From the IMG/VR virus record IMGVR_UViG_3300035698_025354: a DNA stretch of 44,343 bases; one strand, 5' to 3'. This DNA comes from a virus. Its lineage: Duplodnaviria > Heunggongvirae > Uroviricota > Caudoviricetes. The notes under the pieces were generated by a model. The model had not been told where the DNA came from and ran no database searches. It saw only the letters and a program-made list of their open reading frames with translations. This document shows positions 1 to 36,589 of the stretch, piece after piece (positions within the stretch are counted from its first letter, which is position 1; each line of letters opens with the position of its first letter). A program made the position numbers and the translations under genes.

Positions 1-39
1 AACCAGCGTTAACAACCAGCGTTAACAACCAGCGTTAAC
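1..39. repeat. 13-bp direct tandem repeat (AACCAGCGTTAAC x3), may continue beyond the window start
   Basis: Three perfect copies at 1-13, 14-26, 27-39, each containing the palindrome GTTAAC. Confidence 0.9.
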
Positions 40-310
40 AATCAGACTCAACCCAAGACTTGATCGAATCAAAGACCTCCATCTGAACAACGCTCAACGG
101 ATTAACAGGGAGCCAAACCCTACGGACCGTATAATCCTTGTACTGCTCACACCCCTCAACATAAGTATGAAGTGGGACCTCCTCAACACCGTCATTCCCT
201 ATCTTAGCGGCGACCTGTGCAAGATCTTGCGTCGTGAACAACGCAAGATCAGCCGTGTCGGGAGCATTCCCGTCATAGTCCGCATAAACAGCAAACACTT
301 CCTCACACAT
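35..310 (-). CDS. hypothetical protein (probable start MCEEVFAVY at 310)
   Basis: ORF 35..409; ATG at 310 preceded by AGGCGGGAA; protein-like acidic sequence; stop lies in the third 13-bp repeat. Confidence 0.6.
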   Translation of the reverse strand: MCEEVFAVYADYDGNAPDTADLALFTTQDLAQVAAKIGNDGVEEVPLHTYVEGCEQYKDYTVRRVWLPVNPLSVVQMEVFDSIKSWVESDC

Positions 311-479
311 TTCCCGCCTAGTTTTCCTCAACACGCACCCCCTGATTCCCCAGAACCCTATCAATGAAAGAAATCTGCAACTTAAGGATAAGCGAGATTG
401 CAAACACAACGAACACGAACTTCAACGCAAACAAAGTCATGAACCACTCCAAACCGGAGAACAAAAACCGGGGAACCTC

Positions 480-720
480 GCGATCCCCCCTCCCCCATTT
501 GTTGCAAACCAGGACCACACGTAAACGCAGAAAATCCCCCAGTGATCCCCCAGTAATCCCCCCAATAATCACTAAGCATTGGTATACGGAAGCCCATGGG
601 TCCCCTGGGGGGTATGGTCGGGGTGCTCCCTGGCACGTGAAATATCTTCCTCGTGCGTGCGATTCGGATATTTGATATCGCTGGGTTTTTGTGGGTGTTG
701 GGTCCCCTTTGGGTCCCATC
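480..720. other. GC-rich non-coding site at a strand-composition inversion (candidate origin or genome terminus/packaging site)
   Basis: + strand is A/C-rich left of about 600 and G/T-rich to the right; GGGTCCC at 598, 700 and 711; C/G runs. Confidence 0.45.
534..570. repeat. 11-12 bp imperfect tandem repeat (ATCCCCCAGTR) x3
   Basis: ATCCCCCAGTG / ATCCCCCAGTA / ATCCCCCCAATA / ATC at 534-570. Confidence 0.75.
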
Positions 721-772
721 GGGTTTTACCTAGTCTTGTTGGTTATTGTGTTCTAGGTGTGTTTTTGTCATG

Positions 773-1087
773 TTAGTCTTTTTCGTTTTTTAGCATTATT
801 ATGGTGTTTATTGTTTTTTGTATGCAGTTTGGGTCGCTGATGAGTGTGAATGTTTTGTATTGGGAGCTTGGTTTGTATCTTCCGAATAGTATTATTTCGT
901 CATTTGTTATCATTATCATTATTATTATGGATTTTAAGCAGTCATGACGTTGTGCTATTGATATTCCTGGTCCTGTGTATATTTTGTTGTTTTCGTCCAA
1001 GTATGATAGTTTTCTTTTGGTTTCGCAGATTAGGTTTGTGGTTTGTTCTATGGTTTTACATAGTGTTGTTGTTATGATGTCTTGCAT
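773..1087 (-). CDS. small paralogue, DxxDP family (probable start MQDIITT)
   Basis: C-terminal ISDPNCIQKTI; start lies 2 nt after the upstream stop. Confidence 0.75.
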   Translation of the reverse strand: MQDIITTTLCKTIEQTTNLICETKRKLSYLDENNKIYTGPGISIAQRHDCLKSIIIMIMITNDEIILFGRYKPSSQYKTFTLISDPNCIQKTINTIIMLKNEKD

Positions 1088-1089
1088 GT

Positions 1090-1452
1090 TTATGGCTTTG
1101 TGATTTTGTCTGAGAACCAACTGTGTGGGCTCTCAGACATTTGGTGTCTGTTTATGTATTCGATTAGGGTGGTGGTGTAGGTTAGTATGTCGTGTTTTAT
1201 GGAGTTGGTTATGTGGTTTAGGAATTGTGGGTCGTTTATGTCTATTTGTTTTTTGCTTATTCCGTTGTAGTTTATGTTGCCGTTGTTGTAGTTTATGCTG
1301 GCGATGTAGGTGACTTGGTTGTTTATGTGTAGAGTTATGCTCATTGAGAAGCATTCGTTGTTAGGGGTTGTGGTCTTTGCTTTTATTTTTGGGATACGTA
1401 GTATCGTGGTGTTGATTTTACCTATTAGCATTGGGGTTATGCTTATGCTCAT
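1090..1452 (-). CDS. small paralogue, DxxDP family
   Basis: IASINYNNGNINYNG...DINDPQFLNHI; ATGA overlap with upstream gene. Confidence 0.85.
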   Translation of the reverse strand: MSISITPMLIGKINTTILRIPKIKAKTTTPNNECFSMSITLHINNQVTYIASINYNNGNINYNGISKKQIDINDPQFLNHITNSIKHDILTYTTTLIEYINRHQMSESPHSWFSDKITKP

Positions 1453-1766
1453 GGTTCTAGGTTCTTTATTGTGTTTTGTATGAAGCTATTTATGTTGATG
1501 GTGTTCATGTCGTTTTTTATGGTTTGTTCCCATTTTTCTCCTGCTAGGTTTGTTGTTGGTTTGGTTCTTTGTGTTAGTGTTAGGTTGTTTTGTTCAATTT
1601 TGATTATGGCGATTGCTAGGGACCATGGTGAATTGTGTTTTGTATGTATTGATAGGTATTGGTCGGGTCCCGTTCCTGATAATCCCATGTATTGCACTTT
1701 GTGTTTTGTGAGTTTTTTTGTTAGGTTGTTTTTAATTGTGAGTAGTATTGCTTTTGTGAACTTCAT
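1449..1766 (-). CDS. small hypothetical protein, probable diverged DxxDP family member
   Basis: Same size and architecture; DMNTININSFI; abuts neighbours. Confidence 0.75.
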   Translation of the reverse strand: MKFTKAILLTIKNNLTKKLTKHKVQYMGLSGTGPDQYLSIHTKHNSPWSLAIAIIKIEQNNLTLTQRTKPTTNLAGEKWEQTIKNDMNTININSFIQNTIKNLEP

Positions 1767-2072
1767 TTAGAATCCTCTTTTTAGTCGTAGGACTATTTCA
1801 CTTATGAAGTTGTGGATGTTTTCGTGGCCTATGTCGCATGTGTAGTTTCTTGGCCATTTTTTCCATGGCTCCAGTAATCCGTAGGTTTGTAGGGTTAGGA
1901 GGTTGTTTTTTAGTGTTATTTTGCCTTTTCGTGGTTTGTGGTTGGTGGTTATTATGAGAGAGATGTATTCTTCGCATTCGTGTATGAATATTCCATCGTT
2001 GAGGTTGTCGGTGTTGGCGTCGTATTCTTGTATTATTTTGTCTGTTATAATTTCTAGCATTTTATTGTTCAT
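1767..2072 (-). CDS. small paralogue, DxxDP family (diverged)
   Basis: N-terminal LEIITDKII helix; CDIGHENIHNFI. Confidence 0.8.
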   Translation of the reverse strand: MNNKMLEIITDKIIQEYDANTDNLNDGIFIHECEEYISLIITTNHKPRKGKITLKNNLLTLQTYGLLEPWKKWPRNYTCDIGHENIHNFISEIVLRLKRGF

Positions 2073-2394
2073 TTTTTAGTATTTCTGTGATGGAATCTTT
2101 GATATTTTGTATGCTGTTTGGTTGTGATATTCTGTGTTTGGCGATGGGTACTTCTGGTATGTATTCGTAGTATAAGTATGTTATAATGTCGTGCTGGTGT
2201 TCATCATAGCGTGTCAGTATCATATAATCCCCTACTGGTGGGAGTTCTTTGCCAGATGGGCTTGTTAGGGTTTTGTGTTTTATTTCAATACGTATTTGCC
2301 ATTCGAATTTGTTTATTTTGGTTGTTGAGTGTTTGTGGCCAATTTTGGTGATGTGTTTTGATAATTCTGATGTGATGATGCCTAGTATGTTCAT
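2062..2394 (-). CDS. small paralogue, DxxDP family
   Basis: RISQPNSIQNI; overlapping start/stop. Confidence 0.8.
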   Translation of the reverse strand: MNILGIITSELSKHITKIGHKHSTTKINKFEWQIRIEIKHKTLTSPSGKELPPVGDYMILTRYDEHQHDIITYLYYEYIPEVPIAKHRISQPNSIQNIKDSITEILKNEQ

Positions 2395-2735
2395 TTTATT
2401 TTCTTGTGGTCTGTGAAGTGTTGTATATATGCGTCGAATATATTGTAATGTTCTTTTATGTCTTTTATAATTTCCTGTTTTATGTGGTTTATGAATTGTG
2501 GGTCGTTTATGTTTGTGTATGTCATTGCGGTGTTGCGTATTCCATCATATCTGATGTTTCCGTCGTCGTAATAGATATTGGCGATGTGTAGTGATGATAT
2601 TTTTGAGCTTAGGTCTAATGTAACATTTATTTGACTATGTGAGTCTTCATGGTATTTTGTTGTCGTTACCTTTGGGATATGTTCTATTCCTTTTCTAATA
2701 CTATGTATTACAGCGGCGTGTATAATCTTCACCAT
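2391..2735 (-). CDS. small paralogue, DxxDP family
   Basis: IANIYYDDGNIRYDG...NINDPQFINHI; close to 1090..1452. Confidence 0.85.
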   Translation of the reverse strand: MVKIIHAAVIHSIRKGIEHIPKVTTTKYHEDSHSQINVTLDLSSKISSLHIANIYYDDGNIRYDGIRNTAMTYTNINDPQFINHIKQEIIKDIKEHYNIFDAYIQHFTDHKKIK

Positions 2736-2749
2736 GTTTATGACCTGTA

Positions 2750-3166
2750 CTAATTACCAGATGTGAATTTTACCTTTGGGATGTTCTTCTTTTTATTACA
2801 GTGATCGCGATGTATCGCAGTTATTGCACTATTAATATAACTTAAGTATTGTTTTGTAAGGAGTGGGCTATTAATATTGAAGTTAACTTGTGTTTTTATA
2901 TTATATTTTAATAATCTTGAGGATGTTCGTTCAAGTCCTTTAGCCATCATGAGATCTATGTATAAAGTTTCATTATTCTCAATACTAATCACAAAAATAT
3001 AGCAATTGGTGAATTTTTTCACATCTATGAAGTTTATGCGGTATGCTGTGTTTTCTTGGTCAAATGGCTCGATTGTTATGGTTTGATATTCTTCCTCATA
3101 TTCGCATGAGTATTCTTTTTTGATTTTATCTGCGATTACTTTTAGTATAATCTCGGTTATTTTCAT
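2750..3166 (-). CDS. small paralogue, DxxDP family (probable start MKITEII)
   Basis: EIILKVIADKIKKEY resembles 1767..2072; FNINSPLL. Confidence 0.75.
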   Translation of the reverse strand: MKITEIILKVIADKIKKEYSCEYEEEYQTITIEPFDQENTAYRINFIDVKKFTNCYIFVISIENNETLYIDLMMAKGLERTSSRLLKYNIKTQVNFNINSPLLTKQYLSYINSAITAIHRDHCNKKKNIPKVKFTSGN

Positions 3167-3167
3167 T

Positions 3168-3473
3168 TTATAATGTTCGTTTTGGTAGTGATTTGTATGT
3201 GTGTACGTCCCTGCCAACCGCATTTATTATGTGTTTTAAAAGTGCTGGGTTGTTAATATCCATGGACACTATATAGTCTCCGTGGTATATGATATACCCA
3301 TCTTCGTAGAAGATGTGTGATATTGTAACGTGCGATATAATAAACCTACATTTAGTTAATATTACGTATATGTAGAATTCGTGTGTGTTATCATTTGTTA
3401 CGTCTATGATTAGTTCTGGTATTTGTTCTAGTTGGTTTTTTATTTCTGTTACTAATAGTGAGTATATGTTCAT
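3168..3473 (-). CDS. small paralogue, DxxDP family (probable start MNIYS)
   Basis: ISHIFYEDGYIIYHG...DINNPALLKHI. Confidence 0.8.
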   Translation of the reverse strand: MNIYSLLVTEIKNQLEQIPELIIDVTNDNTHEFYIYVILTKCRFIISHVTISHIFYEDGYIIYHGDYIVSMDINNPALLKHIINAVGRDVHTYKSLPKRTL

Positions 3474-3484
3474 GGTTGATGCAT

Positions 3485-3844
3485 TCAACTGATCGAATGC
3501 AAAAAATTCAAATAGTTTGTTGCTTTTGGCCATTTTCTTTTGGCCCATTTTATTGACGCGTCCATGGTTTTTTCTTTTTGGCTGTTTATCTCATCTATTA
3601 TTGCAGTGATGCAATTTGGGTCACTGAAGCTTTTGGTGATTTCTTTGTTTCCTCCTTGGTAGATTATCTCCCCATCCAGGCTGATTATTTTTCCGATGTG
3701 TTTAAATGTGTCACCGTCGCCGTCGTCGTTGCGTGGTACTTTAATATGTATGTTAATTATGTTTGAGTATATTGTTGCGGATATGCTTGGTGTTTTGTTG
3801 AGTCTTGTTAGTGCTTCGGTCATTATTAATTTTGATATATTCAT
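3485..3844 (-). CDS. small paralogue, DxxDP family
   Basis: HIGKIISLDGEIIY...SFSDPNCITAI. Confidence 0.85.
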   Translation of the reverse strand: MNISKLIMTEALTRLNKTPSISATIYSNIINIHIKVPRNDDGDGDTFKHIGKIISLDGEIIYQGGNKEITKSFSDPNCITAIIDEINSQKEKTMDASIKWAKRKWPKATNYLNFLHSIS

Positions 3845-3854
3845 AAGTTATTAC

Positions 3855-4181
3855 CTATCTGTTTTGCTTTTGTATGCTACCTATTATTTTGTCAATTAAC
3901 TCTGGGTCGTTTATATTAATGACTCTTTGTAGTGGCTGGTTGTTTTTGATTGGTTCAGGAATGTAATGTATGATTTGTTCATCGTTATAGATTATTTTTC
4001 CGAGGTATCCATGGCGTGGGATTAATTCTTTTATGATTGCGTATGTGTAGATTACTTCATTTCCCGACAAAATGGGGGAGGACGGAACAACCGGGTTATA
4101 AACCTCCATTACTGCGTCTATGTCTGGTAGTTGGTTGAGTTTGTTTAGGATTTCTTTCATCAATATTTGTATTGTATTCAT
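3855..4181 (-). CDS. small paralogue, DxxDP family
   Basis: YLGKIIYNDEQII...NINDPELIDKI. Confidence 0.85.
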   Translation of the reverse strand: MNTIQILMKEILNKLNQLPDIDAVMEVYNPVVPSSPILSGNEVIYTYAIIKELIPRHGYLGKIIYNDEQIIHYIPEPIKNNQPLQRVININDPELIDKIIGSIQKQNR

Positions 4182-4191
4182 GTTGGTGTTA

Positions 4192-4473
4192 TTACCTGAC
4201 GTGCTTTTTGTAATCTTCTACTTCTTTTTTAAAGTATACTATTATTTTGTTTAGGAATTGTGGGTCGTTGAGGCTTGTTATGTGTTCTCCTGAGTAGGCG
4301 AATTTCATGAATAAGAATACATCCGTGTTTATGGTTTTTATTTTTCCGATGTATCCTTCGTTTGGTTCGCAATATATGAATAGGGTTATGGTGTTATCAT
4401 CATCGCATGTTGGTATCACACCTTTTATTTGTCTTATGTGATTTGTGATTATGTTTATGATTGGGGAGTTTAT
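4192..4473 (-). CDS. small paralogue, DxxDP family; probable ATA start
   Basis: YIGKI...SLNDPQFLNKI; frame open upstream of the GTG at 4419 to an ATA at 4473 with AAGGA 8 nt upstream, restoring the N-terminal helix. Confidence 0.7.
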   Translation of the reverse strand: MNSPIINIITNHIRQIKGVIPTCDDDNTITLFIYCEPNEGYIGKIKTINTDVFLFMKFAYSGEHITSLNDPQFLNKIIVYFKKEVEDYKKHVR

Positions 4474-4546
4474 GTTGTTAATCCTTGGTTTGGGTCGGAT
4501 AGTTTATATCCAGTTGCGTGATATTTTAAAAAATTTAAGGTCTTAG

Positions 4547-4885
4547 TTATATGTCGTGGTGATTATTAAGTATATTAACCATGTTGTGTAATATTTCATA
4601 TGTGAACATATCGGTTGAATTTTCTTCGGTGGGTTGTATGTTACTTATGTGATCTATGAATGCGTAATATTCTTTGTGGTCTGATAATCTGAATGATAGA
4701 TCATGTATTGTTAGTTTGTCTCCGTTTATGATTATTTGTGTTATTGGGATTACTTTTGATTTTTTGTTTTGATAGTTTTTGTCATATAGGAATGATGCGT
4801 TTTTATTTGTTTCAAGTTGTATGATATCAAATTGAGGGAAGTTTTCCTTTATAATCATTTCTAGGATTTGAATAAGATTCTCCAA
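4547..4885 (-). CDS. small hypothetical protein, possible diverged family member
   Basis: 112 aa, LIQILEMIIKE helix then beta-rich; motif weak. Confidence 0.7.
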   Translation of the reverse strand: MENLIQILEMIIKENFPQFDIIQLETNKNASFLYDKNYQNKKSKVIPITQIIINGDKLTIHDLSFRLSDHKEYYAFIDHISNIQPTEENSTDMFTYEILHNMVNILNNHHDI

Positions 4886-5292
4886 TTATCAGAATTATCA
4901 TTTGTTGAGGTTGTTATGTCCTGGCTTGTCATTCTTTTACATCTACCAGATAATTGTATGAATTTTGAATAATGATTATTCGAATGATTGTCATCAAGTG
5001 TTTTCCAATATTCTATATTGTAGTATTGTTTTTTGATTTGTTTTTTAAATTTTTTGAGGTCTTCCTGGTCATTTATGTCGTATCTGTGTTTGAATCGTCC
5101 GATGATTATGGTGTTTCCGGATAGTGCGACTATCGCTATTCTGACGTGTTTACCTGCGAGTGCATTTGGTCTTATTATTTCCCATATACTTACAATGTCT
5201 GTTGTTTTTTTGTCTGATACTTCATTTAGTTGTATTGTTATGCTGTTTTGTAAATCGTATAATATTGCTTCGATTAGTTGGGGCATTGTCAA
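4861..5292 (-). CDS. small paralogue, DxxDP family
   Basis: IIIGRFKHRYDINDQEDLKKF. Confidence 0.8.
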   Translation of the reverse strand: MTMPQLIEAILYDLQNSITIQLNEVSDKKTTDIVSIWEIIRPNALAGKHVRIAIVALSGNTIIIGRFKHRYDINDQEDLKKFKKQIKKQYYNIEYWKTLDDNHSNNHYSKFIQLSGRCKRMTSQDITTSTNDNSDNWRILFKS

Positions 5293-5622
5293 TTTTGATT
5301 ACCTTCATTATTTTTATGTGTAGTCCTAGTATATCTTCGATCATTTTTTGGTTTCGTGTTGATTTGTTATGTCGTATGTTTTTTTGTATTGAACATACCG
5401 TAGTGTGGCAGTTCTTTCTTTAAATATAATGTTGCCAATGCTTATTGCTCCACTTCGAGAAATTACGTCACCGGAGATATCTTCATTTGAGGTGTTTCGT
5501 ATGTGGTAGATTGATACAGAAATTGATCTGTGTGGGTGGTAATCTCTCCAATACGATAGCATTATTTTATTATTGCTTTGTTTTTGGATTTGGTGATTTA
5601 TGGCTTCAATTATTATTTGCAC
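5222..5622 (-). pseudogene. DxxDP family paralogue, frameshifted at a 6-nt homopolymer (5344-5349)
   Basis: ORF 5341..5622 stops at YDITNQHETKK; adding one A gives ...KKMIEDILGL..., restoring the C-terminal helix, with the stop at 5222. Confidence 0.55.
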
Positions 5623-5971
5623 TTTTTTTCTTGCCTTTCTTCTTCTTATGACTTTTGGGTTTTGTTTCTTCTTCTATGTCTTCTTTGGTATCTTCGTTGT
5701 CAAGAAAGCCATATTTTTGTAATACTTCACGCGACGGAATATGATCGTTTACTACAAATGAGTCTCCCGCAGTGATTATTTGTTCACTACAAGGGACATC
5801 ACTTGCTTTCTCATCAGCAATTTCACGATCATAAATAAGTTGCGATAAATTCTGAATAGAATTTAAATGATCGAGAGCAGCTTCTGTAAAACAATATGAT
5901 AAGATCATGCTAATAATGATTAATAATATGATAATGATCGTCATGATTTCTAACAATGTAATTTCTGGCAT
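5606..5971 (-). CDS. hypothetical membrane protein
   Basis: N-terminal hydrophobic helix, acidic middle, Lys-rich tail. Confidence 0.8.
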   Translation of the reverse strand: MPEITLLEIMTIIIILLIIISMILSYCFTEAALDHLNSIQNLSQLIYDREIADEKASDVPCSEQIITAGDSFVVNDHIPSREVLQKYGFLDNEDTKEDIEEETKPKSHKKKKGKKKSANNN

Positions 5972-6070
5972 TAATTTTCCATTTTTAAAAGATGCATATT
6001 TGTTATTTTTCTTATGAGTGTTTCAAAATACTGTAAGTTGTTAAATCATGTGATCTAATATTAAAAATGA

Positions 6071-6436
6071 TTAAATTATATTATTATCAGCAATTTTTTC
6101 CGAACTATTGGTTAAATATCCAAGATCATTTAAGCGATCTACAATCTTATTTGCAAATTCACGTATACTTTCTGAATTTAAGTCACAATTTATCATATAT
6201 TCATCGCCATCCCATGTAAATAATTCCGAATACATCAACGTGCTTGGCAATGTGTCGTGGACTTTGACAAATCCGCAAAAATCTGTTGAGCTTGGTCCAA
6301 CTTCCATATCGCTAAGATTACACCTAGTGTCTTTAACAAAAACACCACTAAAATTGAAGCGTATTTGTAATTGATCATTGGTTTTTTCTGTGATAATTGT
6401 GCTTATTATGCCCATCACACCTTCAATTATTGTCAT
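6071..6436 (-). CDS. small paralogue, DxxDP family (probable start MTIIEG)
   Basis: CDLNSESIREFANKI. Confidence 0.75.
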   Translation of the reverse strand: MTIIEGVMGIISTIITEKTNDQLQIRFNFSGVFVKDTRCNLSDMEVGPSSTDFCGFVKVHDTLPSTLMYSELFTWDGDEYMINCDLNSESIREFANKIVDRLNDLGYLTNSSEKIADNNII

Positions 6437-6770
6437 CGAATACTTTCTTTGCATATTTAATTATTGTGTTAATACTTTGTGGATCTGATATGTCCACAAA
6501 TATTTTACTGTGTGTCACTGACAAAAGAATGTTACCAAAGAATCCAATTCCCGCGATACAACTAAATTCATTGTCTCTATTATAAATTTTGACATGTTTA
6601 CATGGGTTATGTGCATAGCGTCCTGTTTGTCCACCGCTTATCTGATCATTATATGTTATATAAATAAAGTATCGTGCATAGCATTCTACATGGTATTCTG
6701 GTGATAAAAGTTTTCTTATACCACTAGCGATTATTTTGGTAGATTCTAGTGTGGGATCATATATTGACAT
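6423..6770 (-). CDS. small paralogue, DxxDP family
   Basis: VDISDPQSINTII. Confidence 0.85.
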   Translation of the reverse strand: MSIYDPTLESTKIIASGIRKLLSPEYHVECYARYFIYITYNDQISGGQTGRYAHNPCKHVKIYNRDNEFSCIAGIGFFGNILLSVTHSKIFVDISDPQSINTIIKYAKKVFDDNN

Positions 6771-7089
6771 TATTTTTTAAAAATTCTTTTATGCTAATTA
6801 AGAAATTTGGATCATTGATATCAAATTCTCCGGTTTGTGTTTGCATTGAATCGATATGTTGCAGGGTCAACCATGGGTCATTTTTATTTTGACATATGTT
6901 TATGACAATTCTTATGTTTAAGTATTGGTGTCGAAACACTGTAGTAGTGTCTGATATTTGGTATTCTCCGAAATCCCCAAAGTCATTGGCTAATGTGTTG
7001 CTTATGTGGGTGATCAACACGTTCAGGATTCCATCCAAAGTCACAAGATCTTGATTAAAGTTAATTCTCATGCTTTTTGGCATCTTCAT
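6757..7089 (-). CDS. small paralogue, DxxDP family
   Basis: FDINDPNFLISIKEF. Confidence 0.85.
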   Translation of the reverse strand: MKMPKSMRINFNQDLVTLDGILNVLITHISNTLANDFGDFGEYQISDTTTVFRHQYLNIRIVINICQNKNDPWLTLQHIDSMQTQTGEFDINDPNFLISIKEFLKNNVNI

Positions 7090-7448
7090 TGGTTAGTGTG
7101 TTGCTTATATGGGTGATCAACACGCTCATGGCTCCACCACGGAATCTTAGTAACAAGCGACTTTAATCGTGCTTGTTGTTCGCACTCTTTGATCTTTTTT
7201 AAAAGATTTTGTATTGTTTCAGGTGTATGATATGAGTATTCTTTTCTAATTGATAAGTTAAGATTTTGAATCAAGACACAATCAGTGAAAATATATATCA
7301 TGTAATCCAAATTAGAATTATTGGGTTCACCAATATTTAAGACTATGTAATCCACGAATTCATGTTTTGTTATACGACATGAAATTTCTTCAATATTGCA
7401 AATAAATTCAGCTACTGATAGTTGCAATTTAGTGTAACTATTTTTCAT
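7086..7448 (-). CDS. small paralogue, DxxDP family (diverged)
   Basis: YSYHTPETIQNL; ATGA overlaps. Confidence 0.75.
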   Translation of the reverse strand: MKNSYTKLQLSVAEFICNIEEISCRITKHEFVDYIVLNIGEPNNSNLDYMIYIFTDCVLIQNLNLSIRKEYSYHTPETIQNLLKKIKECEQQARLKSLVTKIPWWSHERVDHPYKQHTNQ

Positions 7449-7714
7449 ATTATCTTATTTTCTGCGAAATAATCATAATCGTCTGGCCTATATTTTAACA
7501 TTCCCTGGTATTTATCGAACCAGAAATTAGCTCTGTCTTGCTGCGATAAGTATAAGATGTTGTTTTGTTTATCGTTTATTGAAGATAGTCGAATGAATGC
7601 TGCCAGATATCCGATGAAGGCACCATTTAGCAGTATTATAATCGCGGATATATTGAAAACTTCGTGTTTAATATAAAGCATTGTTATTTTTACAAAAATG
7701 TCGATTGGGTCCAT
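7445..7714 (-). CDS. hypothetical membrane protein
   Basis: Hydrophobic segment ISAIIILLNGAFIGYLAAFI; AGGGA RBS. Confidence 0.75.
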   Translation of the reverse strand: MDPIDIFVKITMLYIKHEVFNISAIIILLNGAFIGYLAAFIRLSSINDKQNNILYLSQQDRANFWFDKYQGMLKYRPDDYDYFAENKII

Positions 7715-7728
7715 TATGGTTCCCTTTT

Positions 7729-8004
7729 TTAGATTTTTGTTGCAATAATCATATCATTGATTAAATTTTTTAAATCATGTTCTATATTCATATCATAAGT
7801 TTTCAATACATTCCTGAATGGGTATTCTGTATAATCTTCGTATACTAATATCATGTTATTTATGATTTCACAAAACATTATTGGTATGTACACTATTTCG
7901 ATAAATACACATACCAGGAACTCACTTTCTTTTAGTTCTAGTGTATTACTAGATCCGCGTCTTATATATATGTTTTTGGGTAGTGATTCTTGTATTGCTT
8001 GCAA
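7729..8004 (-). CDS. small paralogue, DxxDP family; possibly frameshifted from an ATG at 8041
   Basis: QAIQESLPK resembles RAIESHLPK of its neighbour; YDMNIEHDLKNL. Confidence 0.7.
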   Translation of the reverse strand: MQAIQESLPKNIYIRRGSSNTLELKESEFLVCVFIEIVYIPIMFCEIINNMILVYEDYTEYPFRNVLKTYDMNIEHDLKNLINDMIIATKI

Positions 8005-8037
8005 ATATTTGTGGTGATTTTTTGTTGATGTTCGCCG

Positions 8038-8394
8038 TCATTGTAATTTGTTTAATTTAAGATGCTCTTTTGCGACGATCACTGCCATTTTCTTTATTTT
8101 TTCGACCATTTTTAATAATTGGTCTTGATTGTTTAGGTCATACTTTTCTACGATTTTTATGCCAAGTTTTGCTGCTATGTTCATTCTGGTCAGTAGATTA
8201 TAATGAATTACACATATGTTATCTTTACAGCTAGAAAACGCAAATTGTGTTGATTTTCCAAACACAATTACGGTATATGTTATATTTTTAGTGTTTCGAC
8301 TTATACCGCATTTAACATATTTTGGAAGATGGCTTTCTATGGCTCTTTGGATAAGGTTTTTTTGTGGCGGTGTACGAATAATATTTGAACTCAT
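8038..8394 (-). CDS. small paralogue, DxxDP family
   Basis: YDLNNQDQLLKM. Confidence 0.8.
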   Translation of the reverse strand: MSSNIIRTPPQKNLIQRAIESHLPKYVKCGISRNTKNITYTVIVFGKSTQFAFSSCKDNICVIHYNLLTRMNIAAKLGIKIVEKYDLNNQDQLLKMVEKIKKMAVIVAKEHLKLNKLQ

Positions 8395-8396
8395 TG

Positions 8397-8930
8397 TTAT
8401 TTTCCAGATAAGTTATTGTAAATATAGCTTCCTTTTTCTGCCCCAGCTGTTTCCATTTTTTCTATTAAAAATTCTTGGATTTCTAGTACGGTTGTGTTAT
8501 GTCTTCGTTGGATTATTGATGAGACGACTGTTTCTGGGTTTTTGAGTCTGTAGATAATTCTGGATTTGTCGTCTTCTTTTGGGTTGTCGTTACTGTCTTT
8601 GCTAACGGCTATTCGTTCAAGTAGGTTGTCTATTGTTGCTTCTTTTTGGTGTTGCTCCATTATTTCCCATGTGCCTTTGTTAATTCCGATAATAACGTCA
8701 TGGTCTCTTAGTTCTCTATTTTTATCGGTTGACTTGGTGATTGATGCTACCTTAATATGCCCATCTTGGTCTGGCTTGATATTAAATTGCCACATTAGCA
8801 TGATGTTTACACCGAGGATTCCTTCTTGTCCTGAGTGATACTTTTGTATTAAGCCATTTACTAATGTATAGAGCTGTGGGTTGTCTGTGTTTTCGATTAA
8901 TTCCCAATTTACTGGTTTTGGCTTAGACAT
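8397..8930 (-). CDS. phage putative metallopeptidase-family protein (PhageMetallopep-like) lacking HExxH
   Basis: LIQKYH...W...DQDGHIKVA...RELRDHDVIIGIN..TW...QKEATIDNLLER...DDKSRIIYRL follows the family pattern, but DHELxH is replaced by DNLLER. Confidence 0.6.
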   Translation of the reverse strand: MSKPKPVNWELIENTDNPQLYTLVNGLIQKYHSGQEGILGVNIMLMWQFNIKPDQDGHIKVASITKSTDKNRELRDHDVIIGINKGTWEIMEQHQKEATIDNLLERIAVSKDSNDNPKEDDKSRIIYRLKNPETVVSSIIQRRHNTTVLEIQEFLIEKMETAGAEKGSYIYNNLSGK

Positions 8931-8932
8931 TT

Positions 8933-9286
8933 TTAATCTTTCATAATTAAAGTATATTGTTTTTGTATTGATTTTAATAAATCATTGAATTCAATTTCAT
9001 TATTGATGTCGAATTCAAATGATTTTGGGAGTGATTCTTTTGGGTTTTTCTTTGTAAGTTTATATACGTTGTTGGTTAGTGATCCATATGCTTGTAATGA
9101 TATTAAAGCAGGGATATGTGACTTGTGACAATTGCAATGAACAATATGTGTTTTAATAACATAATACGCATGCCTATCTGCAAATTGTTGTGGTTTATCA
9201 TATTCACGAACAATCATATCATCATATATAGTATTTAAGATCTCAAATAATTTAGGAAATGCGATGCTTAAATTTAAAACTTCCAC
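8933..9286 (-). CDS. small paralogue, DxxDP family
   Basis: FEFDINNEIEFNDL. Confidence 0.75.
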   Translation of the reverse strand: MEVLNLSIAFPKLFEILNTIYDDMIVREYDKPQQFADRHAYYVIKTHIVHCNCHKSHIPALISLQAYGSLTNNVYKLTKKNPKESLPKSFEFDINNEIEFNDLLKSIQKQYTLIMKD

Positions 9287-21571: not shown

Positions 21572-21997
21572 CTAATGTCTTATATAACACAAAAGCACAA
21601 TGCAGCATAAAATGACGCATAATTTTAAAGCATTTTTTATGATTTTTATTTTATTTCGCCTTTTAATATAATTTTTATTTGAATCTTCTAGAAATTTTTT
21701 GATGTTATATATCAAATTCGGGTCTTGAATATCAAATTTTTCATTTGATACTTGTGTCTTTTGTTGTGCTATATAATAGCTAAACGAGACAAATAGGTGG
21801 CTACATCCGAAAAGATCTTCTGAAAATGATATAAATACATTATGACCTTTATAAGTCTGATAACTTAATTGAGACCATATTGTGCTTTGTGATAGGTTTA
21901 ATTCTTTTATTATAAGTAATTTCACATGCTTGCGAAATTTAAGTTTCTCAGAATATTCATCTAAATCAAAATCGAGTGGTGGGGGACCAAGAACCAT
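21572..21997 (-). CDS. DxxDP family paralogue with C-terminal transmembrane helix
   Basis: FDIQDPNLIYNI; LCVILCCIVLLCYI tail. Confidence 0.75.
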   Translation of the reverse strand: MVLGPPPLDFDLDEYSEKLKFRKHVKLLIIKELNLSQSTIWSQLSYQTYKGHNVFISFSEDLFGCSHLFVSFSYYIAQQKTQVSNEKFDIQDPNLIYNIKKFLEDSNKNYIKRRNKIKIIKNALKLCVILCCIVLLCYIRH

Positions 21998-28504: not shown

Positions 28505-29454
28505 TGTAACCCACACCAGACCGTTTCACAAAAATTGTCCCAGTTATATTTGTTTTCTATTTCTACACGTGAGTTAATAGCTCTTTGCATTAAATATTTT
28601 TCATCTTTATTTAATAATTCCCTTATTGCACTAACACTTTGAGCAACATTATTTGCTATTAATTCGGTAAAAAATTCATCGTTGTAATACCCTGATTCCT
28701 TAGTGCAAGCAGTTATTAGCCCCCAAGCCCTAGATTCTAAAAGGGTGGTTGGATTTGCATCTGAAATACTTGTGCTGATGAATATATCAGATTCATCAAT
28801 TATCGATTGTGCGACTTTTTTTGTAAGATGCCTCCAACCTATAGCTTGCACATTTTTTAATTTAGCCAGTGGATGATCACCATCACCACCGTACCAATTC
28901 AATGTAATGTCTGGCATAGCTTTCATGATTTCAATCATCATACCAAGATTTTTTTGGGGCATGCTGCTGCCAATATAAGCTAATGTTCTTTTTCCCTTAA
29001 TATTAAATTTTTTTCTTAAAAAAGGAAAATGGTTTTTATCAACAGCCATGTCGATACGCGTCATTTTTGGTTTCCAATGTGCGAATTGTGTGTTTTGCAC
29101 ACTATCATACCAGTATGGACCACAAATTGAAAATATTTTATCAGCTTTTTTAGATATTTCATCAAATGGCCAATTATCTTCCGGTCTTTTATGGTGAAAT
29201 GGGTGGATAGTGCATTTTGCTTTAAATTTTAGGTCTCTTGCAAATACCTGTTGGGTTATTGTGCTTTTATCATAATGCGGATGACCTATAAACACTGTAT
29301 CCTCATCTGGTTCAGGAATATTTTTTGAGTCCCATACATCATATGTTACTTCAGCTCTGTCACTTAAATATTTGTGTAGGTGGCTTGTTATACAGTATGG
29401 TGAATCAATTCGACCAGAGTCTGGTTGGAATGCATATACTAAAAATATTTTCAT
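28492..29454 (-). CDS. GT-B glycosyltransferase (GT4-like)
   Basis: YIGSSMPQKN, DIFISTSISDANPTTLLES, KYNW. Confidence 0.85.
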   Translation of the reverse strand: MKIFLVYAFQPDSGRIDSPYCITSHLHKYLSDRAEVTYDVWDSKNIPEPDEDTVFIGHPHYDKSTITQQVFARDLKFKAKCTIHPFHHKRPEDNWPFDEISKKADKIFSICGPYWYDSVQNTQFAHWKPKMTRIDMAVDKNHFPFLRKKFNIKGKRTLAYIGSSMPQKNLGMMIEIMKAMPDITLNWYGGDGDHPLAKLKNVQAIGWRHLTKKVAQSIIDESDIFISTSISDANPTTLLESRAWGLITACTKESGYYNDEFFTELIANNVAQSVSAIRELLNKDEKYLMQRAINSRVEIENKYNWDNFCETVWCGLQCFN

Positions 29455-29804
29455 TTTTCTCTTCCGCTCCATCCTCGTTTTAATCCGTCAATAGATTCAC
29501 GTATGATCCATTCTTCGAGTTTACCAAGGGATTTAGGGTCTTGAATATCAACAGTAAATTGCTCGTCACAAACATTCCATTTTGTGAAAAACAAAATTTT
29601 GGAACCAACAAGTGAGCCTCTACATCTAATAAATATTCTGGTATTTCTTCTGTCATTACATTGTGATATTGTTATCTCACCATCTGGTTCATCATCACTG
29701 TTTGCATAACCACAACGATATTTTTTATTTAATTTACCATTAATTGATTTATATAAATCATGAGCGATAGCTTTTGCAATATTTTCTTCTTCTTCTTTAT
29801 TCAT
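29451..29804 (-). CDS. DxxDP family paralogue
   Basis: VDIQDPKSLGKL. Confidence 0.75.
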   Translation of the reverse strand: MNKEEEENIAKAIAHDLYKSINGKLNKKYRCGYANSDDEPDGEITISQCNDRRNTRIFIRCRGSLVGSKILFFTKWNVCDEQFTVDIQDPKSLGKLEEWIIRESIDGLKRGWSGREK

Positions 29805-29900: not shown

Positions 29901-30380
29901 TCATTCTGATTCATCTGCTTCTTCAGGTTTATGTGGGGGATGATCGGCTGAAATAAGTTGAGATAATTCATCGTTGTTTAGATTTATCAAGTCTTTGTTT
30001 TGTAGGTGGTTTTGTAGGTGGTTTTGTAGGTGGTCCAACATGGCTTCAACATGATTATGTTCATTCAAAGTATTCTTTAATAATGCAAATACTTCATAAA
30101 TCCTATCTATATGCATCTTTTGAGTTAAATACCCAAGCATTAATGATGCTTCCGTAGCTCGCAATTTAACATGTAAATTTTTAACTTCATGCTCTAAAGC
30201 GTCTATATTAGTTTTTGCACCTTTTAGTTTTATTTTAGTAGCACAATGAGCATCTTTTAATGTTTCAGCTTCAGAACTTAATTGGATTACTCTGTTTTTA
30301 AGTGCTCCTTTTGAGTTTGCGTAATCTGTACCCCATAACATTTTGCATATAAAATTAAGCATGATTGTTCTTTTTTGCAT
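29901..30380 (-). CDS. coiled-coil hypothetical protein
   Basis: Heptad-like sequence; HLQN x3. Confidence 0.75.
   Translation of the reverse strand: MQKRTIMLNFICKMLWGTDYANSKGALKNRVIQLSSEAETLKDAHCATKIKLKGAKTNIDALEHEVKNLHVKLRATEASLMLGYLTQKMHIDRIYEVFALLKNTLNEHNHVEAMLDHLQNHLQNHLQNKDLINLNNDELSQLISADHPPHKPEEADESE
29997..30032. repeat. 12-bp intragenic tandem repeat x3 (HLQN)
   Basis: GTTTTGTAGGTG x3. Confidence 0.85.
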
Positions 30381-30690
30381 TTTTAACAGCCCTTTTATTT
30401 AAGCTCATTGATTCTTGGCGTATTCTTATTTTTTGATTAATAAATATGATTACGTTTGTTAAGTCTTCTTTATTGAGATCAAAAGTAATTTCTATTTGAG
30501 CTTGGCTATTTAAAACATGGATAAATCCATCATCGCGATAAGTTATCGCTAATACAACAACTTGTGTCAAGCCAGTGTTTTCGTACACTAAATAATCGTG
30601 TTTATATTTGTACTCTGTCGCAAAAGCATATTTTTTTATAATGTATCTTTCTGGTAATTGATCACTGATTATTTGGAGAATTTTATACAT
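30355..30690 (-). CDS. DxxDP family paralogue
   Basis: ILQIISDQLP...FDLNKEDLTNVI. Confidence 0.75.
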   Translation of the reverse strand: MYKILQIISDQLPERYIIKKYAFATEYKYKHDYLVYENTGLTQVVVLAITYRDDGFIHVLNSQAQIEITFDLNKEDLTNVIIFINQKIRIRQESMSLNKRAVKNAKKNNHA

Positions 30691-36403: not shown

Positions 36404-36589
36404 TTATGTTTTATCAGAATTTTTATTTTTTTCGTTTATTTCGGCTTGGACTTCCCCCCTGTTAACTGATATCTCTCTTGGGGCTGTAATACCAATGCGA
36501 ACTCTATTACCTTTTACTTCTATTATTTGAACTTCAATGTTTCCATTAATTATTATGGTTTCTTCTGGTTTTCTTGTCAGTACGAGCAT
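36404..36589 (-). CDS. csrA: carbon storage regulator CsrA/RsmA
   Basis: MLVLTRK..E.I.I...IEV.I..V.GN.VRIGITAPREISVNRGEV. Confidence 0.96.
   Translation of the reverse strand: MLVLTRKPEETIIINGNIEVQIIEVKGNRVRIGITAPREISVNRGEVQAEINEKNKNSDKT

Follow-up and report, generated by a model that had tools for sequence, protein, structure and literature searches.

A run of small genes at positions 773–9286 of the Caudoviricetes record IMGVR_UViG_3300035698_025354 contains, judging from comparisons among the encoded proteins, at least 10 tandem copies of a lineage-specific multigene family, with 2–3 more copies elsewhere in the same element. The record was analyzed over a stretch of 44,343 nucleotides (nt), referred to here as the window, and the element is a contig of about 85 kb from salt-lake metagenomes. 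The run, which we call the array, consists of 24 minus-strand open reading frames (ORFs) of 75–177 amino acids (aa) tiling 8.5 kb (Table 1; ORFs are named by their left coordinate). Ten of the 24 are firm members of the family, five are probable members, six stayed unlinked and three are non-members; the number of tandem copies is therefore probably 15. A sequence-only reading of the window had proposed about 21 paralogues. The expansion of one scaffold is real, but 21 is an upper bound, with 10 firm and 15 probable copies in the array. The array is genuine, and few genomes of phage size would be expected to contain one; we conclude firmly that it represents a new family of orphan proteins in multiple copies, whose sandwich fold is simple and whose conservation is limited to the core.

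All-against-all blastp linked six ORFs (1090, 2391, 3168, 3855, 3485 and 4192), which we refer to as the core. A hidden Markov model (HMM) seeded on three of them recovered the full set, with scores clearly exceeding those of 504 shuffled or reversed decoys; in the next round 6423 (13.2 bits) and 773 (13.0 bits) came just above the best decoy, and 6757 was borderline. A position-specific scoring matrix (PSSM) covering 16 residues around the shared motif, and built from the six core members alone, gave p values of 0.0005 or less for 773, 6423 and 6757, 0.004 for 4861, 0.01 for 2062 and 0.04 for 2750. Its best match fell 18–48 residues from the C-terminus in 11 of the 18 non-core ORFs. Comparison of single ORFs with a nine-member profile using hhalign singled out 4861 (score 27.4, shuffle maximum 16.3). 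The firm members outside the core are thus 773, 6423, 6757 and 4861, each above shuffled decoys by HMM, hhalign or motif PSSM. An HMM of 4861, 5341, 7729 and 8038 together with 8933 matched the core member 3168 (16.9 bits, best decoy 10.8), and iteration from 13 members gained 8933 (13.7 bits), 2062 (11.7 bits) and two ORFs outside the array, 21572 and 29451 (best decoy 9.9). The probable members in the array are 5341, 7729, 8038, 8933 and 2062. Non-members are 5606 and 7445, which have membrane-spanning stretches, and 8397, which matches PF18894. All-against-all profile comparison and HMM building had been suggested as a check on the sequence-only reading; they firmly joined 10 array ORFs against decoys and left six unlinked.

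The motif supports the same grouping. Its strict form, [ILMF][NS][DN]P, occurs in 9 of the 24 array ORFs, whereas 2000 shuffles averaged 0.5 and never exceeded 5, so it is commoner than compositional bias predicts; among the 47 other likely genes, with about four times as many residues, it occurs in one. At the same position, 4861, 5341, 7729 and 8038 carry YD[ILM][NT] (four ORFs, shuffle mean 0.27). The three sub-group motifs that had been listed were all found: IxxIxYxxGxIxYxG in 1090, 2391 and 3168, IGKI in 3485, 3855 and 4192, and YD..N in 4861, 5341, 7729 and 8038. The claim that identity persists around the motif at the DNA level was borne out as well. A 15-mer has three exact copies, at 1222, 2493 and 4255 (0.1 expected by chance), with the in-frame product N-D-P-Q-F, and codon-aligned identity among the genes that bear it is at least 90% in an eight-codon window at the motif, compared with about 50% elsewhere. 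In the aligned members a single Pro is invariant and the remaining conserved positions are hydrophobic or turn residues. Conservation is confined to core and helix-cap residues and the isoelectric point (pI) of members runs from 4.5 to 9.9, in agreement with the variable surface that had been proposed.

AlphaFold2 was run on the core member 2391–2735 with a nine-sequence alignment. The model (predicted local distance difference test, pLDDT, 82.5; predicted template modelling score, pTM, 0.72) has a helix at residues 3–17, strands at 23–30, 33–40, 49–57, 60–65 and 70–73, and a helix at 81–111. The family is predicted to adopt a two-layer sandwich in which a five-stranded antiparallel sheet is preceded by an amphipathic helix and followed by a capped C-terminal one. 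Since N-D-P directly precedes the last helix in the model, the motif appears to cap it. A helix, beta core and helix had been claimed for nearly every ORF; the confident model bears this out for that one core member only. A second model, of 6071–6454 with four putative relatives, reached a pLDDT of 49 and contains the terminal helices and one hairpin only, a prediction compatible with the helix-sheet-helix architecture that gives no evidence for it.

The 2391–2735 protein is also predicted to form a homodimer, with an interface score (ipSAE) of 0.66, compared with 0.05 for the best of three controls. Three runs have at least 76% of contacts in common, and the partner pLDDT is 80 or higher. Of 30 proteins solved as same-chain pairs, 20 reach this mark, as does 1 of 23 solved as single chains; because our own alignment was used, these counts apply only approximately. 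The predicted interface involves the C-terminal helix extension (93–107), the 42–50 loop and residues 21–22. Many members end before residue 95 in 2391–2735 numbering, and dimerisation may thus be limited to certain copies.

With their most plausible starts, the array ORFs abut or overlap by a few bases, and no more than three gaps exceed 40 nt (4420–4546, 5293–5340 and 5972–6070). We did not find any inter-gene repeat family or element in 773–9286, where the repeats present are in-gene paralogous segments only; both results agree with the earlier description of abutting or overlapping genes with no cassette repeats between them. Signs of a cassette array or of a diversity-generating retroelement were likewise missing, with no inter-gene repeat family and no reverse transcriptase among the scanned ORFs. 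In the left half of the array T makes up 30% of second codon positions and 14–16% of first and third positions, a periodicity indicating that the frames are coding and not open by chance alone.

Most of the copies could instead be functionless leftovers of old duplications, held open because a coding strand poor in T and G makes stop codons rare. The composition is indeed extreme (in 773–5622, A accounts for 48% of third positions, C for 30%, T for 14% and G for 8%; in other genes C is 13%, T 32% and G 12%), erosion is evident in three copies, and alternative-frame ORFs of 59–73 aa are present on the same strand. However, with about 6% stops among random codons, the probability of a 100-codon open frame is only about 0.001, and the region is covered end to end by 24 frames. 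The clear codon periodicity and the confident model also speak against leftovers, as does the retention of fold-determining residues. Pairwise synonymous differences among paralogues (pS 0.44–0.87, shaped by shared codon bias) are saturated, which makes the duplications old and the ratio of non-synonymous to synonymous changes (dN/dS) uninformative; conservation of the fold-determining residues despite this saturation requires purifying selection. We therefore consider it improbable that most copies lack a function.

The three eroded copies fit the birth-and-death expansion that had been proposed, showing a lost start, a truncation and an out-of-frame duplicate. Gene 4192 has a GTG start at the conserved I-P, although the in-frame codons upstream still encode the N-terminal helix; this upstream frame reaches ATA at 4473, where relatives carry ATG-AAC. 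In ORF 5341 a stop directly follows the motif and the last helix is missing. The third case is the 51-nt repeat D5 (6983–7033 and 7086–7136, 86% identical), made of DNA of the 6757 N-terminal helix: one copy lies 103 nt upstream of the original, out of frame, and serves as the tail of 7086. These relics reflect ongoing loss and rearrangement. In four salt-lake runs from separate studies, contigs are at least 99% identical, with one single nucleotide polymorphism (SNP) and no indels or joints. The SNP, 2228 T>C, is non-synonymous in 2062–2394. No recent copy-number variation was seen across these runs, and as the region is clonal in them, copy-number variation and selection are not measurable.

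Searches for relatives returned the element itself. No family member, in the array or dispersed, matched Pfam (E ≤ 0.01), PHROGs or NCBIfam, and a profile search of PDB sequences gave no match to the family. Neither 50,697 phage records, searched with megablast and tblastn, nor three IMG/VR scans yielded a relative of the array or its neighbours. A k-mer search of 5.8 billion clusters recovered the element's own proteins only. A full HMMER search of 1.84 billion representative proteins recovered these plus four extra hits, which were rejected as artefacts (FAS1 repeats and tandem-repeat ORFs). The earlier statement that the family is not a recognised one thus stands against Pfam, PHROGs, NCBIfam, PDB and searches at the billion-protein scale. 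Separately, the metagenomic protein P0016 (430 aa, seven 61-aa tandem repeats) contains the sequence S-N-D-P-K-I-I-N-K-I, weakly like the motif (E 8e-4 over seven short stretches); this likeness is probably due to chance or to an assembly artefact.

Since only fold-determining residues are conserved, and charge and loops are free, the products are in our view most likely non-enzymatic binding modules. We suggest that the array genes form one co-oriented, operon-like block amid small accessory genes, and that the products, some of them dimeric, would each have a separate target among host proteins or defence components, serving as inhibitor or adaptor during infection. The block would then be a paralogous counterpart of the host-takeover or anti-defence gene clusters of phages. 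This reading, of binding modules against different host or defence proteins expressed as one block, is tentative, and we give it somewhat less than an even chance. It draws on the small size of the proteins, their lack of catalytic conservation, their pI values of 4.5–9.9, the accessory-gene neighbourhood and an analogy with phage SPO1 (PMC6873191).

The host-takeover module of SPO1 is a cluster of 26 small early genes, several products of which bind and inhibit host proteins (PMC6873191). Like it, the array packs some two dozen genes of ~100 codons, mostly without database relatives, into one co-oriented stretch of a large phage; its 24 minus-strand ORFs in 8.5 kb have the compactness and common orientation of an SPO1-type block of many small genes. 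The two differ in that SPO1 has mapped early promoters and a location in the terminal redundancy, whereas most array genes belong to one family. To our knowledge, the genes of the SPO1 cluster are not paralogues of each other. Large DNA viruses do have lineage-specific families, such as those of the poxvirus “genomic accordion” or the ankyrin, BTB and MORN families of giant viruses. The array resembles these in its tandem duplication, divergence and loss, its variable genome region and its presumed role in host interaction. Unlike them, with their eukaryotic hosts and known repeats or domains, it belongs to a phage-sized element of ~85 kb and encodes an orphan fold.

Structural comparison of the 2391–2735 model gave generic neighbours. 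Foldseek against PDB returned nothing below E 0.001, matches in BFVD were uncharacterised viral proteins only (best template modelling score 0.71), and the ESM Atlas gave no score above 0.78, its own model of 2391–2735 being poor. An exhaustive VIA-align search found the Med17 C-terminal domain (Z 8.8), actin-capping protein (8.1) and CyaY/frataxin (7.2–7.5), together with Nqo15, SicP/SycH, PsiB, the MotA C-terminal domain (Z 6.4) and YjbR/DUF419 (Z 5.7–6.3). By the tool's own note such values are typical of unrelated sandwiches, and they therefore place the model in a frataxin-like class of alpha-beta sandwiches, implying no family membership. Frataxin/CyaY, like Nqo15, the Med17 C-terminal domain and actin-capping protein, has the same order of a helix, an antiparallel sheet of at least five strands and a helix; it aligns over 85–94 residues with a root-mean-square deviation of 3.1–3.5, within the tool's background range. 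No family member matched the frataxin/CyaY profile (PF01491), and there is no sequence similarity. The acidic ridge of frataxin (helix 1 and strand 1; iron binding) is absent, helix 1 of the family being mixed or basic with no conserved Asp/Glu column, and frataxins are single-copy cellular proteins, in contrast to this viral multigene family.

The presence of the MotA C-terminal domain and YjbR/DUF419 among the neighbours, and the basic character of several members (pI 9–9.9), would suit regulators that, like the T4 MotA C-terminal domain or YjbR, bind nucleic acids through the open face of the sheet and that as a set retarget transcription or bind RNA. Other members, however, are acidic (pI 4.5–5.6), no basic patch is conserved in the alignment, and the Z-scores are within the range for unrelated sandwiches. 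A nucleic-acid-binding role is in our view quite unlikely.

The small two-layer alpha/beta proteins PsiB, SicP and SycH (Z 5.9–7.0 to the model) act purely by binding another protein. The family had been implied to be confined to the array, yet two probable members (21572 and 29451) and one possible member (23793) are found outside it, adjoining an FkbM methyltransferase gene (21572), a GT4 glycosyltransferase gene (29451) and a sulfatase gene (23793). A further ORF, 30355–30690, has a right-looking helix and a D-G turn and no significant score. The proteins might accordingly be adaptors, chaperones or regulatory subunits of the phage's own programme, for example partners of glycan-modifying enzymes, as both this direct adjacency and a fold like the small chaperone or adaptor sandwiches SicP/SycH (Z 6–7) would suggest. 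On the other hand, about 15 array copies have no adjacent enzyme, and the structural matches are at background level. Class I chaperones of type III secretion (CesT/SicP-like) follow the order alpha-beta3-alpha-beta2-alpha, whereas the model has five consecutive strands and lacks the middle helix. The family has no sequence relation to PsiB or these chaperones, and the predicted 2391–2735 dimer forms through the C-terminal helix extension instead of the interface used by the chaperones. We found no cognate secreted effector beside the array genes, the neighbours of which are family members, membrane proteins and the metallopeptidase. An internal adaptor role seems unlikely to us, without being negligible.

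Diverged small alpha/beta proteins in tandem are also typical of immunity islands (established knowledge; reviewed in PMC3482391), and a type VI immunity protein appeared among the weak Foldseek rows. Each paralogue could in that case neutralise a different toxin or exclude superinfecting phages, comparably to the orphan immunity arrays of polymorphic toxin loci. But no toxin gene or domain occurs in the 54 kb read, and no Pfam immunity family was matched, so that an immunity-type array has in our judgement a low probability.

Several observations weigh against the proposal of host-directed binders expressed as one block. Early timing is assumed, and the promoter scan gave no convincing promoter. 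No homologue with known function was found for the family, and its structural matches are generic (Z 7–9) and point to no function. Saturated paralogues and clonal contigs give no readout of diversifying selection. According to the model, dimerisation may not be general, since the interface extension is absent from many members. The position of dispersed members beside glycan-modifying enzymes could mean an internal and not a host-directed role. Finally, 1449, 1767, 2750, 4547, 6071 and 7086 are not tied to the family; a profile of 6071, 1767, 1449 and 2750 with the probable member 8933 gave E 0.27 against the core profile in profile-profile comparison.

Phage genomes are compact and rarely contain more than a few paralogues. 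At least 17 copies of one small orphan fold, occupying ~7–10% of an element of ~85 kb, imply sustained selection for many versions of the scaffold. If the products are host-directed binders, they would make up a natural inhibitor library on a simple, apparently well-folding frame, and the array would serve in the search for new host or defence targets and as a scaffold for design.

Elsewhere the element encodes a dUTPase, a thymidylate-synthase-like enzyme, RNase H, a NucS-like nuclease, a PurA-like ligase and many glycan-modifying enzymes, and a CsrA homologue at 36404–36589 on the minus strand (PF02599, E 8e-22) supports a bacterial host. Together with the PF18894 peptidase, CsrA and the nucleotide and glycan enzymes indicate a large phage-like element of a bacterium; no virion genes were seen in the 54 kb read. 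Scans of the window for tRNA and Rfam families gave no matches. A sigma-70 promoter and terminator scan scored barely above shuffles, with no usable start site, and is uninformative in AT-rich DNA. Ribosome-binding sites of the GGAGG type are mostly absent from the array genes, which have A-rich leaders, and strong Shine-Dalgarno sequences are found in the GC-richer genes to the left; the weak signal in the array may follow from the depletion of G on this strand or reflect another mode of translation initiation.

Table 1. ORFs of the array, candidate family members outside it and the adjoining non-coding stretch (window coordinates).
Positions	Strand	Assignment	Basis
410–772	.	GC-rich non-coding stretch downstream of the array; contains the ~590 switch and a copy of the repeated hairpin element	
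773–1120	-	Firm member; likely true start is the ATG at 1087	HMM 13.0 bits, above best decoy; PSSM p=0.0005, expected C-terminal position
1090–1452	-	Core member, HMM seed	blastp to 2391 E 8e-14; I-N-D-P and exact 15-mer at 1222
1449–1766	-	Small unlinked ORF	hhalign no better than shuffles; weak link to 1767 and 6071 only
1767–2072	-	Small unlinked ORF	hhalign, weak-group HMM and profile-profile comparison
2062–2394	-	Probable member; holds SNP 2228 T>C	PSSM p=0.01; 13-member HMM 11.7 bits, decoy 9.9
2391–2735	-	Core member, modelled as helix, five strands, helix; predicted homodimer	AlphaFold2 pLDDT 82.5, pTM 0.72
2750–3223	-	Small ORF, possible member; likely start 3166	PSSM p=0.04; hhalign not significant
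3168–3548	-	Core member; likely start 3476	blastp, HMM
3485–3844	-	Core member	blastp, HMM
3855–4181	-	Core member	blastp, HMM
4192–4473	-	Core member, eroded start; listed ORF 4192–4419 (GTG start) lacks the N-terminal helix	HMM
4547–4885	-	Small unlinked ORF	No PSSM or hhalign signal
4861–5292	-	Firm member, long C-terminal tail	hhalign 27.4, shuffle maximum 16.3; PSSM p=0.004
5341–5622	-	Probable member ending just past the motif, C-terminal helix absent	YD[ILM][NT]; DNA repeat D6 to 4861; HMMs
5606–5971	-	Non-member, membrane protein	Maximum 19-residue hydropathy 3.07; no HMM or hhalign family signal
6071–6454	-	Small unlinked ORF	AlphaFold2 pLDDT 49; profile-profile E 0.27
6423–6770	-	Firm member	HMM 13.2 bits, above decoys; PSSM p=0.0005
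6757–7089	-	Firm member	PSSM p=0.0005; HMM borderline
7086–7448	-	Small unlinked ORF; its final 17 codons duplicate the 6757 N-terminal-helix DNA out of frame	Repeat D5
7445–7714	-	Non-member, membrane protein	Hydropathy; hhalign
7729–8004	-	Probable member, YD-motif subgroup	YD motif, HMMs
8038–8394	-	Probable member, YD-motif subgroup, pI 9.9	blastp to 4861 E 0.003; YD motif; HMMs
8397–8930	-	Non-member, putative phage metallopeptidase	PF18894 E 1.9e-7, 31.7 bits, gathering cut-off 23.7
8933–9286	-	Probable member, first gene of the run	13-member HMM 13.7 bits, best decoy 9.9
21572–21997	-	Probable member outside the array, hydrophobic C-terminal tail	hhalign 22.3, shuffle maximum 13.9, motif and helix columns; HMM 13.2 bits
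23793–24197	+	Possible member outside the array, just upstream of the sulfatase gene	hhalign 16.0, shuffle maximum 13.6, motif columns
29451–29804	-	Probable member outside the array	hhalign 18.3, shuffle maximum 13.5, motif columns; HMM 11.1 bits

The array had also been described as lying next to an origin- or terminus-like site. A sharp switch in strand composition is indeed found beside it, at ~590: the keto skew (G+T minus A+C) is -0.40 in the kilobase to the left, +0.48 in 1038–2037 and ~0.1 by 6 kb, and all genes across the switch remain on the minus strand (window 1–6000, L001:4473–5600). The window start, by contrast, is not a physical genome end. Two metagenome contigs, L001 and L002, which represent the same genome and are 99.98–100% identical to the window in the overlap, run 10 kb further left, so that the genome continues for at least 10 kb in this direction. 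The leftward extension (L001:4473–14435) has 39–48% GC, compared with 30–33% in most of the window, and the element is thus compositionally two-part. A 5-kb zone of extreme and graded strand asymmetry, beginning near 590, holds the array. This zone might undergo a local strand-specific mutation process, for example through prolonged single-strandedness at a replication start, with the binder genes kept in a fast-mutating zone; we regard this as very unlikely. If true, it would be a position-based diversification of accessory proteins, distinct from retroelement- or cassette-based mechanisms. The link to the composition gradient could also reveal how the location of viral accessory genes influences the way they evolve.

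To the left of the array, each small gene is followed by a repeated intergenic element made of a ~25-nt box, a G/C hairpin with a T-run and a strong Shine-Dalgarno sequence. Copies lie at window 1–45 and 410–560 and at L001:4434–4540, 4868–4950, 5245–5330 and 5532–5620. The box is loosely like a -24/-12 promoter, and its first 13 nt are tripled at window 1–39; the array is without such elements. The minus-strand ORF at window 35–409 is a real gene, with distant homologues (33–51% identity) on five metagenome contigs (L003–L007) of 45–58% GC, none of which carries the array family. The GC-richer part also contains an unrelated pair of small paralogues, L001:4541–4873 and L001:10144–10404 (34% identity, E 2e-15), and a DksA/TraR zinc-finger protein is encoded at L001:10433–10645.

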